Shown: in pieces, positions 17,263 to 33,132 of the stretch | Numbering within the stretch: position 1 is the first letter of the stretch | How the letters are laid out: each line of letters starts with the position of its first letter | NCBI GenBank assembly: GCA_965238025.1 | Contig: OZ250162.1 | Coordinates: 969,288 to 1,033,287, forward strand | Reading direction: 5' to 3' | Source of the DNA: Aggregatimonas sp. | GTDB lineage: Bacteria > Bacteroidota > Bacteroidia > Flavobacteriales > Flavobacteriaceae | DNA length: 64,000 bases | Notes under the pieces: generated by a model | What the model was told of the DNA's origin: nothing | Database searches by the model: none | The model's input: the letters and a program-made list of their open reading frames with translations, nothing else | Position numbers and translations under genes: made by a program

Positions 17263-18282
17263 CTACTCATGCTCTAAATACAAATTCCTGGCTCTTCTCA
17301 ATTTTTGAGAAATCCGTTTCCGTAACCGTTGGGGCTGCAATACCTCCATTGCCTCCCCAAAACCTAAAATCAATCGTTCTAGCTCAAAATTGATTTTTAC
17401 TTTGATATTGATTTCAATACTACCATCTTCATTTTCTTTCTCTATGAGCTGTGAATGATGCATGGGTTTTGTAATCACATAAGGAGCATTGTATCTATCA
17501 ACCCATAACTTAATATTTGAAGCTCGCTCTCCTTGATTTACTGTTACTCCAACAACATCCTTGTAAAAAGTATCTGCATCAAATTCAAAGTCTGTGTAGG
17601 AAGTTGCAAAATCATAATCAATGGAGATAATTCGATCTAAGGCTAAATTAACAACACCTTTATTTTTATTCCCCATCCCTACTAAGAACCATCGATTATT
17701 GAACTCCTTCAATAAACAGGGATGAAAGGTAATTATATTAGCCTCTCTGGCTTTGAATGACTTGTACTCTAATTTCAAGACCACTTTTTTCTGAATGGCT
17801 TGATACAATTCATCTAACCAATGGAGTCCCTTTAGATTTTCATTTTTATCCAGATGGATAATCGAAGATTGGTGGGTTTTTTCAGTATAAACTTTATCTT
17901 CTAATCGTTGTATGATACCGCCTAACTCCGAGAACAATGAAAAGTCTTTAAACTGCTTCAACATTTCCACAGTTTCTGAAAGTACATTCATATCATTTTC
18001 CGTGATGGGAATATCAGTAATTGAATAGTCTTCCTCTTCGTACTTGTAATATTTCTTATCATAAACAGTAATCGGAGCGTTATACCCTAGTTTATCACTG
18101 CGCATTAATTGAATATCTAATTGAACCGTCCGTTTACTCACGTTCACTTCACGACCCTCGTATTCATATAAGGCATCTGAGCAGGCTTCAATTAAATCAT
18201 CTAAAGTCCATTGACGGTAGTTGTTCTGCAAACATTTGTCAATGGTTTTATAACGGATTAGGGCATTTTTGTTGAGGGCCAT
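17263..18282 (-). CDS. HTH-WYL domain transcriptional regulator
   Basis: N-terminal wHTH (VSKRTVQLDIQLMRS), WYL-like FHPCLLKEFNNRWFLVG...LALDRI, C-terminal WCX-like LILGFGEAMEVLQPQRLR. Confidence 0.9.
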   Translation of the reverse strand: MALNKNALIRYKTIDKCLQNNYRQWTLDDLIEACSDALYEYEGREVNVSKRTVQLDIQLMRSDKLGYNAPITVYDKKYYKYEEEDYSITDIPITENDMNVLSETVEMLKQFKDFSLFSELGGIIQRLEDKVYTEKTHQSSIIHLDKNENLKGLHWLDELYQAIQKKVVLKLEYKSFKAREANIITFHPCLLKEFNNRWFLVGMGNKNKGVVNLALDRIISIDYDFATSYTDFEFDADTFYKDVVGVTVNQGERASNIKLWVDRYNAPYVITKPMHHSQLIEKENEDGSIEINIKVKINFELERLILGFGEAMEVLQPQRLRKRISQKLRRARNLYLEHE

Positions 18283-18284
18283 AG

Positions 18285-18902
18285 CTATAAAATTTCAAGT
18301 TCTCTTTTGATATTGTTTCTTGCATTGTTTTCGAATAACTGATAAAAAGCATCAGTTTTATAAATTCTGTTCTTATTCAAAAACTGTCGTAACACTTTCT
18401 TTCTGCCCCTCTTGTACATGAAGTTCGGTACTGAACCATACTCTTCGCGTATTTGCTTGGTATATGAATGATATTTATCCCAGGATTGCCCGAGAATACC
18501 AAGGTCGAAATCTACCATCCATTTTTCATCAGTATTCATTTTAGGGCTGTGGTCCTTAGTCCCCATAATGAGATTGAAAACCCGTTCTATAGCTCTATCT
18601 TGTGCATAGGTGATTAACAAGTAATCCATTGCCAATTCTCCGCTGTTTAACTCGTTGTTCTTACTCCATATATTATAGATAATATCATGATAGAAAATGG
18701 CATAAGCAACTTCCTCAGGATGATTTAAATTTTCTTTATATCTATCAAAATACTTAAATAATTCCCTTAGGTGATTCAGATCGTGGTAGTGTCTTGAAGA
18801 ATCGCAGTATTTGTTTCTTAGTTCATTCCATTGCGATTCGCCTTGAGACCTATCTTCATTCCAATTCGCTAGTACTTCATAGAATCTTTCTTGTAAATTC
18901 AT
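18285..18902 (-). CDS. HD-domain metal-dependent phosphohydrolase
   Basis: RHYHDLNH...FYHDIIY...DFDLGILG motifs. Confidence 0.85.
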   Translation of the reverse strand: MNLQERFYEVLANWNEDRSQGESQWNELRNKYCDSSRHYHDLNHLRELFKYFDRYKENLNHPEEVAYAIFYHDIIYNIWSKNNELNSGELAMDYLLITYAQDRAIERVFNLIMGTKDHSPKMNTDEKWMVDFDLGILGQSWDKYHSYTKQIREEYGSVPNFMYKRGRKKVLRQFLNKNRIYKTDAFYQLFENNARNNIKRELEIL

Positions 18903-18937
18903 CTGGAACTTTTATGAAAGTTAGATAATAAAAATAT

Positions 18938-18974
18938 CTGCGCAAAATAATTGCGTAGTAGACTATCATATTTG
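18938..18974 (+). promoter_or_regulatory. palindromic operator plus weak -7 box (site 1)
   Basis: CTGCGCA-N7-TGCGTAG, 8 bp, CATATTTG; lies between the divergent HD-WYL and nucleotidyltransferase operons. Confidence 0.75.
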
Positions 18975-18990
18975 TATCATAATTTTAGAA

Positions 18991-31260: not shown

Positions 31261-31501
31261 TAAAATATTTTCAAACCAAGAATAGGTTTGTTGGAAGTTC
31301 CCACAACAACAAGGAGTGTTGTGGGAGAATCTCAAAAGTTCATTGAAACAATTTCTACTTGGGTAGAAACTAAAATATCAAGCTGGTCTTGTTGGGCGTT
31401 TCTGTAAAGCACTATTGTATGAAGTTTTGCCGAGAGGTATTAAGTCTTCATATACAACTTGACTTGAAGGTTTTGATTGTTAGCCAAAAAACAATCACCA
31501 C

Positions 31502-31573
31502 TCTGTGAGTCATGGGTTCGAATCCCATCGGTCCCAAATTGGGACTGTAGTTCAGTTAGGTTAGAACAACAGA
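31502..31573 (+). ncRNA. circularly permuted tRNA-like module (YrlA-type topology); may be part of a longer RNA from about 31425
   Basis: order: anticodon-stem 3' strand TCTGT, GAGTC, T arm, loop-closed acceptor CGGTCCCA-AAT-TGGGACTG, D arm, ACAGA. Confidence 0.7.
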
Positions 31574-31575
31574 AG

Positions 31576-31658
31576 GACGCGCAGGTTCGACTCCTGCAAG
31601 AGGCCACCTTTTTTAGGCCCTTTAGCTCAGTTGGTAGAGCACTACACTCATAATGTAG
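31576..31658 (+). ncRNA. permuted or broken tRNA-Ile2/Met(CAU)-like element
   Basis: T arm GCAGG-TTCGACT-CCTGC and AAGAGGCC-ACC come before GGCCCTT, D arm and CTACA-CTCATAA-TGTAG; no T arm downstream. Confidence 0.55.
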
Positions 31659-32031
31659 CCTAAAGCTAATCATCTTTTAAAACTGATTACCAAGCCCTGT
31701 TAGGCTTAAAATGACAAAAGCCGTAGTTATACCTCGGTTGGTTTTTCTTCGGAAGAATCAACAGTCTTAAAACTACTTTGAAATACTGAATTTTTGACGT
31801 GAAAGGCAATTTCTTTTTGAATATCCTTCTTTCGGAAAAACCAATGAGAAGTATTGGTAACACTGATGAAAGCATACCGAAAAACAAATAGTAACAAACT
31901 TCGAAAACCAATATTTCCGTAACAGAGAGATGAAGTATAACTCCGGTTTTTTAAAAAGAAGAAAATTAAAATAATGATAATAGTTTAACCCGTTCGTCCG
32001 TCACTAGACTGGCGGACACAAATTTTAAGTA

Positions 32032-33132
32032 ATGAAAAGAGTAAGAATCAATGCAGGAAAAGTAGGTTTGGTCTTCAAAAGAGGCGATTACCAAAGAGTT
32101 ATCACCCAAGGTACACATTGGGTTGGCTTTACAAATATGGTTAAGGTCTATGACCTTACCAAATCCTTTGTGGCTCCTATAGCATTAGAGATCTTGCTAC
32201 AGGACCAAGGTTTGGAAGCTATGTTGCATATCATAGAAGTAAAGGATGCTGAATTGGCTTTGGTTTCTGAAAACGGAAACTTGAAGCAAGTCCTTACCGC
32301 TGGTAAGTACGCTTTCTGGAAAGGTCTGATAAACTTCGAGTTCGTTATGGCGGATTTGAGTAAAATCTATATCACAGAAGCTATCAGCAAAGCAATGCTG
32401 AGCCATCCTCAGATAAGGGCTTATGTCCGTACTTTGGAAGTTGCGGCTTATGAAAAAGCTGTCCTCTTGGTTGATGATGTTTATGTCAAAACACTAGAAA
32501 GTGGTACATACCATTTCTGGAAGAATGACATCTCCATTAAAATCGCTAGAGCGGATATGCGTCAATTACAATTGGAGATTTCCGGTCAAGAATTGTTGAC
32601 TAAAGACAAGGCTGCTATTCGTATCAATTTCTATACACAGTATAAAGTTGTTGATATTGAAAAAGCTTTGCTTGGCAGCAAAGACTATGAAAAGCAGTTG
32701 TATATCGCAATGCAGCTGGTATTGCGTGCTTATATCGGCACCTATACTTTAGATGAACTTCTAGAGCGAAAAGAAAGCATCGCAGAAGCGGTATTTGCAG
32801 ATATCAAGACAGCCGCTACCCAATTGGGTGTTGAAGTTTTGAGCTGTGGTATCCGTGATGTCATCTTGACTGGTGAAATGAAAGACATCATGAACCAGGT
32901 TTTGGTTGCCCAAAAGAGAGCTCAGGCGAATATCATTACCCGACGTGAAGAGACTGCGTCTACCAGAAGCTTGCTGAACACCGCAAAGTTGATGGAAGAC
33001 AACGATATGCTCTTCAAGTTGAAGGAAATGGAATACGTTGAGAAGATCGCTGAGAAAATCGGTGAGATTACCGTCTCCGGCAACGGAGGTATGGTAAAAC
33101 AATTGAAGGAGATTTTCTCCGTCAATAAGTAG
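32032..33132 (+). CDS. slipin (SPFH/band 7) family protein
   Basis: EISGQELLTKDKAAIRIN, IRDVILTGEMKDIMNQV, AKLMEDNDMLFKLKEMEY motifs. Confidence 0.88.
   Translation: MKRVRINAGKVGLVFKRGDYQRVITQGTHWVGFTNMVKVYDLTKSFVAPIALEILLQDQGLEAMLHIIEVKDAELALVSENGNLKQVLTAGKYAFWKGLINFEFVMADLSKIYITEAISKAMLSHPQIRAYVRTLEVAAYEKAVLLVDDVYVKTLESGTYHFWKNDISIKIARADMRQLQLEISGQELLTKDKAAIRINFYTQYKVVDIEKALLGSKDYEKQLYIAMQLVLRAYIGTYTLDELLERKESIAEAVFADIKTAATQLGVEVLSCGIRDVILTGEMKDIMNQVLVAQKRAQANIITRREETASTRSLLNTAKLMEDNDMLFKLKEMEYVEKIAEKIGEITVSGNGGMVKQLKEIFSVNK

Follow-up and report, generated by a model that had tools for sequence, protein, structure and literature searches.

What holds together the RNA repair genes, tRNA genes, and structured RNAs that crowd a 16-kb island in the chromosome of Aggregatimonas sp.? 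The island occupies positions 17263 to 33132 of the window, by which we mean the whole 64,000-nucleotide (nt) stretch analyzed here (contig OZ250162.1). From comparison with related loci, we consider it probably a composite of modules by which the cell responds when its translation machinery is damaged. The locus would have been put together from three modules that keep company in Flavobacteriaceae: module A, with an HD-type hydrolase, two RlaP nucleotidyltransferases, and a divergent RtcB RNA ligase; module B, with another RtcB, the release factor homologue PrfH, and a TPR-like protein (rtcB2-prfH-TPR); and module C, which comprises an array of spare tRNAs (C1) and a block of structured RNAs ahead of a gene for a stomatin-like SPFH protein (C2). 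Every component listed in the initial annotation was found in its place (Table 1), except that the label HEPN, given to two proteins, traces back to motifs alone; where it had claimed at least three noncanonical structured RNAs, we found four.

Conserved order of the modules across Flavobacteriaceae

The components of the island were scored by tBLASTn, nhmmer, and ARAGORN in 80 prfH loci with 10-kb flanks, which together with the window's own locus make 81 loci. Sixty-seven of them, the window's own included, have full flanks, and they cover six or more genera of Flavobacteriaceae (the genera sampled were Maribacter, Zobellia, Cellulophaga, Kordia, Aquimarina, Tenacibaculum, and Polaribacter). 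Across the phylum, true PrfH was present in 21 of 401 sampled Bacteroidota genomes. Among the 67 fully flanked loci, the TPR gene follows prfH without exception (67/67), and the SPFH gene is present in 30, each time accompanied by an RNA with permuted tRNA-like modules (30/30; see below). A downstream array of five or more tRNAs is found in 22 loci, 19 of which also have SPFH, and the WYL regulator is found in 25, 23 of which also have a second RtcB. Less frequent are the tRNA-shaped RNA (16 loci), the HD gene (12), and RlaP (11). In at least six genera, the genes keep both their order and their strand. The initial annotation had staked its reading on co-occurrence of the components in other genomes, and this prediction held, with the modules recurring in conserved order.

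Ribosome rescue genes and a divergent set of spare tRNAs

The PrfH of the island is of the PrfH-CT type, and in the alignment it carries the basic, Lys/Arg-rich C-terminal tail of that subfamily. Homologues in Escherichia coli show that RtcB2 and PrfH rescue ribosomes with cleaved 16S rRNA and religate the rRNA (PMC9304027, PMC9223846), and the PrfH-CT of Capnocytophaga rescues both damaged and intact stalled ribosomes (bioRxiv 10.1101/2025.01.09.632186). By analogy, PrfH in module B would release ribosomes stalled by 16S cleavage or on broken mRNA, and its partner RtcB would religate the cleaved rRNA. An RtcB gene stands directly before prfH in most related loci (4 of the 67 fully flanked loci have no RtcB match), and because of this conserved adjacency, the RtcB2 role is likely in spite of a differing subfamily. 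In several relatives, a conserved open reading frame (ORF) of ∼230 to 260 amino acids (aa), without a family match, overlaps the rtcB2 start (L005:8432-9217, minus strand; L007:8322-9101, plus strand; L038:15080-15775, minus strand); it is absent from the window.

Further downstream, 16 tRNA genes are packed within 1.3 kb, with spacers of 2 to 17 nt. Each of the 16 anticodons has a counterpart among the housekeeping tRNAs, 39 of which lie elsewhere in the genome, and the array copies are 54 to 71% identical to these. The array is thus a redundant and divergent spare set, in keeping with the proposal in the initial annotation of a supply of replacement tRNAs, which most likely would replace or out-titrate tRNAs cleaved by ribotoxins. 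The same biased anticodon set occurs in 25 arrays, in which tRNAs for Asp, Cys, Pro, Leu, Gln, Glu, Tyr, His, Arg, and Lys are common, those for Val, Ile, and Met occur once each, and those for Ala and Thr are absent. Known targets of anticodon nucleases are the tRNAs for Tyr, His, Asn, and Asp (colicin E5), Arg (colicin D), and Lys, Glu, and Gln (xm5s2U-specific enzymes). The common array set overlaps with these targets, which is only suggestive.

The two array members annotated as tRNA-Leu (UAG and UAA; window 29555-29706) are 74 to 75 nt long and lack the long variable arm of bacterial tRNA-Leu, so that their charging identity is uncertain. Such short tRNA-Leu genes have a median length of 75 nt over the 25 related arrays (UAG, 74 to 83 nt; UAA, 75 to 76 nt). 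Between the tRNA array and the RNA block, related islands hold extra genes, namely, those for an RNaseH-like PF04308 protein and an AlkB-like 2OG-Fe(II) oxygenase, and one Tenacibaculum locus additionally holds a DEDD exonuclease and an IS200 transposase (L007:14512-15537; L006:4149-4643; L038:3065-3550 and 7057-8208).

Leader peptide attenuators and a shared operator as probable links between modules

Two gaps in the island, of 656 nt before rtcB2-prfH and of 670 nt before the tRNA array, hold two leaders each, and every leader contains a short ORF and ends in an intrinsic terminator (Table 1). The length of these ORFs is kept among homologues: 21 codons in 16 of 20 (leader 1), 27 codons in 30 of 31 (leader 2), 36 codons in 14 of 14 (leader 3), and 42 codons in 10 of 11 (leader 4). 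The leaders ahead of rtcB2-prfH are paralogues of those ahead of the tRNA array: a GGACGC / AGCGTCC...GGGCGC terminator logic is common to leaders 1 and 3, a promoter region of ∼110 bp is common to leaders 2 and 4, and leaders 1, 3, and 4 all have a conserved His-Ile at codons 7 and 8.

Leader 2 has the anatomy of an attenuator, with a conserved short ORF, a terminator, and a mutually exclusive antiterminator and anti-antiterminator. Its region 1 (ACYGAAGU) directly adjoins the start codon and has its pairing partner, region 2 (GCUUCRGGACUU), in the 3' end of the ORF; region 2 alternatively pairs with the 5' arm of the terminator. Over 20 sequences, pairability is 99.3% for helix 1:2, 99.5% for the antiterminator, and 98.8% for the terminator, and the one covarying pair, in helix 1:2 (C-G or U-A), is at the sole position that varies, which is bulged in the competing helix. 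With a logic like that of the trp operon, either no translation or complete translation of leader 2 would lead to the terminator, and an early stall would free the antiterminator and allow readthrough. Faltering translation itself would then switch on the genes. Modules B and C1 would each be controlled by two transcription attenuators in series.

In leader 1, the first 10 codons after Met (window 24819-24851) are rich in NAY codons (Asn, His, Asp, and Tyr), and replacements in its relatives stay within this class (LNHF versus PDYL). NAY codons are read by queuosine tRNAs, the targets of colicin E5-type nucleases. A match between leader codons and the array tRNAs was considered and rejected, as 12 of the 21 leader 1 codons are covered (counted by hand), which is about the level estimated for the whole proteome.

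Modules A and C2 are linked by a different element, the palindrome CGCA-N7-TGCG. It has three matches in the window, all at island promoters: those of RlaP1, the divergent RtcB, and the RNA block. Across the 81 loci and their genera, the operator is found again at these three kinds of site, while rtcB2-prfH and the tRNA array are never preceded by it; sites of the third kind lie 50 to 155 nt ahead of the RNA block. Loci with a WYL gene have the operator in the intergenic region adjoining that gene, and in four genomes without WYL within 10 kb, an orthologue is encoded 16 to 25 kb upstream on the same contig. The WYL regulator is most likely the protein that binds CGCA-N7-TGCG, presumably after sensing damaged RNA. 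Two sensing circuits, one based on a WYL activator and one on ribosome stalling, had been proposed in the initial annotation; the comparison uncovered a WYL-linked palindromic operator and leader peptide attenuators that could serve them, with WYL binding and attenuation as predicted functions.

Are these links more than coincidence? Some of our data weigh against a single system. The modules are also found apart, and about half of the related loci consist of rtcB2-prfH-TPR alone. Within the window taken by itself, the enrichment of the operator is weak (3 matches versus 1.2 expected, with a count of 3 reached in 9 of 100 shuffles). The helices of the attenuators hardly vary, so that covariation support is limited to one pair, which may represent a single evolutionary change. 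The RtcB adjoining PrfH scores 150 bits with TIGR03073 ("release_rtcB"), below the cutoff of 271.8. The strongest competing explanation is that independent accessory systems have piled up in a variable hot spot, as in defense islands, with no integration among them. The separate occurrence of modules speaks for such an accident, as do the insertion of two strain-specific genes (see below) and the G+C content of 33 to 36% in the left arm (window 18000-26000, from WYL to the first leaders) versus ∼40% around it, which is consistent with acquisition by horizontal transfer. The chromosomal context also differs among congeners, with VIT-VWA neighbors there and SDR and LytTR genes here, and the IS200 transposase mentioned above lies inside one related locus. 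Against chance clustering speak an order and strand conserved in at least six genera, the same operator at modules A and C2, the paralogous leaders before rtcB2-prfH and the tRNA array, and the 19 of 22 arrays that come with SPFH. Moreover, in Anabaena sp. PCC 7120, translation inhibitors induce a single regulon that contains an otherwise silent tRNA array together with rtcB and a slipin gene (PMC8421152, PMC10272220), which means that the same functional set is coregulated there even though its genes are dispersed. We therefore consider accidental clustering unlikely and favor the composite response system.

A divergent GOLLD RNA among tRNA-like RNAs

GOLLD RNA was discovered in 2009, and its 14-subunit cage was shown in 2024 to 2025; to our knowledge, its function has not been established, and phages, near tRNAs, were its only previously known context. 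The large RNA that the initial annotation had counted as unexplained turns out to be a divergent member of this family. In a permissive Rfam scan, RF02032 matches 30780-31256 over model positions 1 to 416 of 416 with 127.7 bits, which is under the Rfam gathering cutoff of 150 bits, a curation threshold; given an E value of 3e-34, homology is beyond doubt. The motifs of the 3' domain and the pseudoknot are all present in the model alignment (AAGCAAAAG.CUUCG; both pseudoknot strands; GUGGA.AA....GGAA...AUAAUCC; the 3' hairpin), and one hairpin is deleted (model positions ∼290 to 305). The RNA lies 335 nt downstream of the 16-tRNA array, and its size of ∼820 nt is typical; a length of ∼817 nt is conserved among GOLLD-bearing loci. 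A search of 40 genomes of relatives found homologues in three congeners (117 to 138 bits). Within its own genus, GOLLD is present in 4 of 16 genomes, each time downstream of rtcB-prfH-TPR and the tRNA array and just before SPFH.

The 13-nt motif AAGTTCATTGAAA forms direct repeats around GOLLD, and where GOLLD is missing, the corresponding junction has the motif only once. Sister loci that are nearly identical differ in the presence of GOLLD, which is thus an optional cassette between direct repeats that has been gained or lost several times. The motif itself, a possible signal for processing or site of recombination, usually stands between a GC-rich hairpin before it and a small hairpin after it, and in related loci it also occurs upstream of leaders (for example, L058:7479).

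On either side of GOLLD are RNAs with tRNA-like features. The 204-nt tRNA-shaped RNA combines the acceptor, D, and T arms of a tRNA frame with a long loop resembling that of an anticodon and a variable insert that is large and structured. Beyond GOLLD, an RNA of ∼300 nt with two permuted tRNA-like modules and a 3' domain of ∼350 nt make up an RNA of ∼650 nt that runs up to the SPFH start codon. According to a later preprint (bioRxiv 10.1101/312249), Burroughs and Aravind predicted in 2016 a tRNA associated with band 7 (b7a-tRNA) beside Band-7 and RtcB genes, which was never experimentally validated and for which Rfam has no family. By description, the SPFH-adjacent RNA fits this class, so that this tRNA mimic is not of the unexplained kind that the initial annotation had supposed. 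Two RtcB genes lie within 11 kb of the SPFH/RNA pair. An invariant hairpin (CGUCCGUCA...UGGCGGACAC; window 31990-32031) ends ∼13 nt before the SPFH start in all Maribacter-type loci and may control SPFH translation. In a Tenacibaculum locus, Rfam matches tRNA twice just after the TPR gene, over 111 and 118 nt (L038:10140-10250 and 10323-10440, minus strand); these frames with long inserts are apparently further tRNA-shaped RNAs. The YrlA/Ro system was also considered and rejected, as the whole genome has no TROVE (Ro60) match and the YrlA model scores 34.3 bits at the permuted-tRNA RNA, against a cutoff of 69.

GOLLD is also linked to RtcB in another lineage. The high-GC metagenome contig RRZU010420013.1 (L310:7664-9449, minus strand), which has chromosomal neighbors, carries a GOLLD (177.6 bits, above the Rfam cutoff) with an embedded tRNA and then, on the same strand, a tRNA, an RtcB gene (389 bits), and a gene of the NUDIX type. 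GOLLD and RtcB are thus linked independently in a lineage other than Bacteroidota. Among the papers searched, none joins GOLLD with RtcB, or "GOLLD RNA" with "RNA repair."

It is possible, and no more than a tentative proposal here, that GOLLD is a working part of a cellular and phage RNA damage response, a nanocage that acts with spare tRNAs, tRNA mimics, an SPFH cage, and RtcB. Since GOLLD, a tRNA, and RtcB share one strand in an unrelated high-GC contig, the link to RNA damage has some support. Close relatives appear to transcribe GOLLD and the permuted-tRNA RNA, because environmental RNA library contigs are 98 to 99% identical to both (30464-30981 and 31446-31719, respectively); these contigs are assembled, they stem from relatives in mixed samples, and DNA carryover is possible. 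GOLLD is, moreover, present in only 6 of the 81 loci (5 of the 67 fully flanked) and is scattered on the rtcB2-prfH-TPR tree, with 5 gains or losses by parsimony, at least 2 of which are forced by well-supported branches. For this reason, the core function of the island cannot depend on it.

A phage-type repair kit with no phage genes around it

The HD protein, both RlaP proteins, and the divergent RtcB have full-length matches to phage protein families (PHROG), and this set, judged by its protein families, is the tRNA repair kit described for jumbo phages, which would heal and seal tRNA ends. Both RtcB proteins of the island are catalytically intact by motif, the divergent one retaining the metal-binding and GMP-histidine motifs. 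The HD label of the 205-aa protein is indicated by its motifs, by source annotations (NCBI, JGI, and UniRef list its homologues as "HD superfamily phosphohydrolase"), and by a PHROG match; Pfam, NCBIfam, and a PDB sequence search gave it no support.

Could the island then be a domesticated or decaying phage cassette, in which the tRNA array, GOLLD, and the repair kit serve phage biology (counter-defense or superinfection control) and not self-repair? GOLLD with tRNA arrays is typical of phages and prophages, and our pattern scan of viral contigs gave at least 29 verified GOLLD loci, many beside arrays of 8 to 30 tRNAs. The pattern also matches by chance, as a second GOLLD motif was present in only 29 of the 80 viral loci and 7 of the 80 loci from metagenomes. 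The module A proteins and the dissimilarity between the array tRNAs and the host's own fit a phage source as well. Against this stands the position of the cassette, which is always between prfH-TPR and SPFH and under attenuators of the host type that are conserved across genera. Family scans detected no phage genes for structural proteins, integrase, or lysis, whether within the island or beside it, DNA similarity to deposited phages does not go beyond a 38-nt tRNA fragment, and no RtcB, PrfH, or SPFH was found near viral GOLLD loci within short flanks of a few kilobases, from which no reliable frequency of RtcB linkage can be derived in either the viral or the metagenome scans. A cassette serving phage biology is thus improbable, and an origin of the whole island as a prophage finds no support, given the same absence of phage genes and DNA matches.

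Two genes of the left arm stand apart from the response system. The initial annotation had counted the 225-aa and 590-aa proteins as HEPN-motif members of the system; the Rx4H motifs RNGFSH and RNNIAH are there, but neither protein has a HEPN family match in Pfam, NCBIfam, or PADLOC scans. The 225-aa protein has no family match at all in Pfam, NCBIfam, PADLOC, and PHROG scans, and its AlphaFold2 model is unusable (predicted local distance difference test [pLDDT] score, 38.7). Both genes are missing from all 80 related loci, being present in this genome alone among 81, and therefore lie outside the conserved system as strain-specific cargo. A toxin-antitoxin or abortive infection system, in which Rx4H RNases would be held by the nucleotidyltransferases (as in MNT-HEPN pairs) and RtcB and tRNAs would reverse the self-damage, could be imagined from an Rx4H protein encoded 5 nt after the tandem RlaP genes and from the resemblance of the DUF4209 protein's C terminus to the phage defense candidate PDC-S39, but it is very improbable given that everything else recurs in loci lacking the Rx4H genes, that the nucleotidyltransferases belong to the RlaP family linked to RNA ligases and not to MNT antitoxins, and that the HEPN fold found no confirmation in the model.

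Layout of the island

The genome is a single contig of 4.04 Mb, in which the island has ordinary chromosomal flanks (ORF listing and family scans), with genes for an AddB-like nuclease and an SDR protein to its left and, to its right, for a response regulator of the LytTR type and a histidine kinase. The WYL-WCX regulator and the 205-aa HD-type protein are encoded on the minus strand. All further genes follow on the plus strand, from RlaP1, RlaP2, the 225-aa protein, the divergent RtcB, and the 590-aa DUF4209 protein through the first leader gap to the second RtcB, PrfH, and the TPR-like protein, and from there through the second leader gap to the 16 tRNAs, the RNA block, and SPFH. The 1.9 kb between the tRNA array and the SPFH gene hold no credible ORF. 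Coordinates and evidence are given in Table 1.

Table 1. Features of the island, in window coordinates
Feature	Position	Strand	Evidence and remarks
WYL-WCX transcription regulator	17263..18282	-	Pfam WYL 39 bits, WCX 57 bits; PADLOC WYL 90.6 bits
HD-superfamily phosphohydrolase (COG4339-like), 205 aa	18285..18902	-	HYHD/FYHD motifs; phrog_19425 "phosphohydrolase" 112 bits
Operator O1 (TGCGCAAAATAATTGCGTA)	18939..18957	.	∼50 nt before RlaP1, divergent WYL/HD promoter region
RlaP nucleotidyltransferase 1	18991..19728	+	PF10127 236 bits, full length; phrog_14344 202 bits
RlaP-type nucleotidyltransferase 2, C-terminal extension	19725..20780	+	PF10127 98 bits, residues 10-127; phrog_388 168 bits, full length
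225-aa protein with Rx4H motif RNGFSH, strain-specific	20786..21463	+	Sequence motif
Operator O2 (TGCGCAAAATGACTGCGCA)	21471..21489	.	∼120 nt before divergent RtcB
Divergent, phage-type RtcB RNA ligase	21596..22996	+	PF01139 130 bits; phrog_1075 319 bits, full length
590-aa DUF4209 protein with RNNIAH motif, strain-specific	22996..24768	+	C terminus resembles defense candidate PDC-S39
Leader 1	24770..24945	+	Promoter-like TAnnTTTG box; 21-codon ORF 24819-24884 (MLNHFNHISDA...); terminator 24911-24936
Leader 2	25130..25325	+	27-codon ORF 25186-25269; anti-antiterminator, antiterminator, terminator
RtcB ligase partnered with PrfH (RtcB2 role)	25424..26815	+	PF01139 278 bits
PrfH release factor homologue, PrfH-CT type	26912..27604	+	TIGR03072 236.8 bits, above cutoff of 166.65
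TPR-like protein	27595..28143	+	Subthreshold TPR matches; gene trails PrfH in 67/67 loci
Leader 3	28150..28356	+	36-codon ORF 28181-28291; terminator
Leader 4	28560..28795	+	Promoter region homologous to that of leader 2; 42-codon ORF 28602-28730; terminator 28758-28784
16-tRNA array, no encoded CCA	28813..30105	+	ARAGORN, Rfam
Operator O3 (TACGCATAATAATTGCGTA)	30127..30145	.	Before RNA block; conserved in alignment
204-nt tRNA-shaped RNA	30181..30384	+	51 pairs, 22 compensatory, 14 sequences from several genera
Module boundary motif AAGTTCATTGAAA, copy 1	30387..30399	+	5 nt after tRNA-shaped RNA, ∼40 nt before GOLLD
GOLLD RNA, ∼817 nt	30440..31256	+	Lineage-specific 5' domain ∼30440-30779; conserved 3' domain 30780-31256, embedded T-arm-like element
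Module boundary motif AAGTTCATTGAAA, copy 2	31336..31348	+	∼80 nt after GOLLD, 22 nt before next RNA
RNA with two circularly permuted tRNA-like modules (b7a-tRNA-like), plus 5' domain	31370..31665	+	79 pairs, 41 compensatory
3' structured domain / SPFH leader	31680..32031	+	RNAalifold 85 pairs, 31 compensatory, no conserved ORF
Stomatin-like SPFH/Band-7 protein	32032..33132	+	PF01145 98 bits; best PDB relatives are stomatins

Proposed function and significance

For this organism, the induction of the genes, the limits of the operons, the binding by WYL, and each of the repair activities are predictions. In the composite response system that we favor, GOLLD probably comes from the same transcript as the tRNA mimics, and in module C2 the tRNA-shaped RNA, the optional GOLLD, the b7a-type RNA, and the SPFH protein, a putative scaffold, may act as scaffold, cage, or decoy. 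If GOLLD does take part, cleaved tRNAs or ribosomal subunits would be sequestered, protected, or presented by its cage, and the tRNA arrays with GOLLD in phages would serve the same end, survival in the face of tRNA-targeting nucleases of the host. The flavobacterial island, in which GOLLD has a fixed slot between the tRNA-shaped and the b7a-type RNA, would then be the first genetically tractable, nonphage setting for testing GOLLD function. A GOLLD in a chromosomal operon whose other members are all predicted to handle broken ribosomes or tRNAs makes a function in RNA repair testable, and natural sister loci with and without GOLLD in a harmless and culturable marine bacterium open the question to direct experiment. 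The locus also physically links PrfH rescue to spare tRNA arrays, and its new set of leader peptide attenuators appears, judging from their sequences, to read the state of the translation machinery itself.

Comparison with known systems

Like the classical attenuators of trp, his, and pheA and the antibiotic-sensing leaders, leader 2 has a short ORF that overlaps regions 1 and 2 of a four-region set. The island leaders differ in lacking runs of one regulatory codon, in being stacked two in series, and in standing ahead of RNA repair genes and tRNAs, not of biosynthesis or resistance genes.

GOLLD RNA forms a 14-mer nanocage and occurs in phages, prophages, and mycobacterial tRNA arrays (bioRxiv 10.1101/2024.12.08.627333; PMC6582537; PMC5966550). 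The island copy shares with known GOLLD RNAs (RF02032) the hallmark motifs of the 3' domain, the pseudoknot, a variable 5' domain, an embedded tRNA-like element, and a place directly downstream of a tRNA array. It differs in its lower score and its missing hairpin, in being chromosomal with no phage genes nearby, and in lying between direct repeats in an operon with RtcB, PrfH, and SPFH; cage formation, known for other members, would be a prediction for this copy. The mycobacterial tRNA arrays also hold ribosome rescue genes (a coding sequence with an RF-1 domain, Pth, and tmRNA). As a tBLASTn search with PrfH against phages and plasmids returned no mycobacterial record among the organisms tallied by name, this RF-1-domain coding sequence is probably no close relative of PrfH.

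The rsr-yrlBA-rtcBA operon of Salmonella combines Ro60, the tRNA-mimicking Y RNA YrlA, and sensing of damaged tRNA by RtcR with its CARF domain (PMC7790460, PMC4201824). In the island, too, RtcB is encoded together with an RNA that mimics tRNA in a permuted topology, and a ligand-sensing regulator, here the predicted role of WYL, is available for the repair genes. The differences are that the island has no Ro60/TROVE, that WYL takes the place of RtcR with sigma-54, and that SPFH is the protein partner.

The island resembles the predicted Band-7/b7a-tRNA/RtcB system in having a tRNA-like RNA immediately before a stomatin-like gene, near RtcB and RlaP and without Ro60. The RNA and SPFH form an obligate pair, as in all 30 SPFH-bearing loci here. 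What sets the island apart is its multidomain RNA of ∼650 nt with two permuted modules, compared with a single tRNA look-alike, and the separate 204-nt RNA, GOLLD, and tRNA array upstream. The locus is the fullest example of this predicted repair system so far.

With the trn operon (L-array) and the TrcR regulon of Anabaena, the island shares a long, tight, and redundant tRNA array tied to rtcB and slipin, and by analogy its array is expected to respond to impaired translation. The genes of the island are contiguous and those of Anabaena dispersed, PrfH and GOLLD are included, and control would be exerted by leader peptide attenuators and a WYL-linked palindrome and not by TrcR direct repeats. 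The HNH domain linked to L-arrays of the Anabaena type was found in none of the island ORFs covered by the family scans. The initial annotation had taken the complete architecture to be undescribed. This holds for the link between GOLLD and RtcB, which we did not find in the papers searched, but not for the regulon of tRNA array, rtcB, and slipin under a single stress repressor, known from Anabaena (PMC8421152, PMC10272220).

Finally, the RtcB2-PrfH pairs of E. coli ATCC 25922 and, with PrfH-CT, of Capnocytophaga gingivalis resemble module B in that a prfH equivalog comes straight after an rtcB paralogue, and the basic tail of the island PrfH is typical of the PrfH-CT of Flavobacteriia. In the island, the RtcB is below the TIGR03073 cutoff, the TPR gene is a constant companion, two leader peptide attenuators precede the operon, and the pair is fused to a tRNA array, an RNA block, SPFH, and a second RtcB kit linked to WYL. 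Each component is thus known in kind, and the locus is a variant of RtcB-centered RNA repair systems, not a new category; what sets the flavobacterial version apart from the regulon of Anabaena is the fusion of its parts, the addition of PrfH-CT and the TPR protein, the control by leaders and WYL, and, in some lineages, GOLLD.

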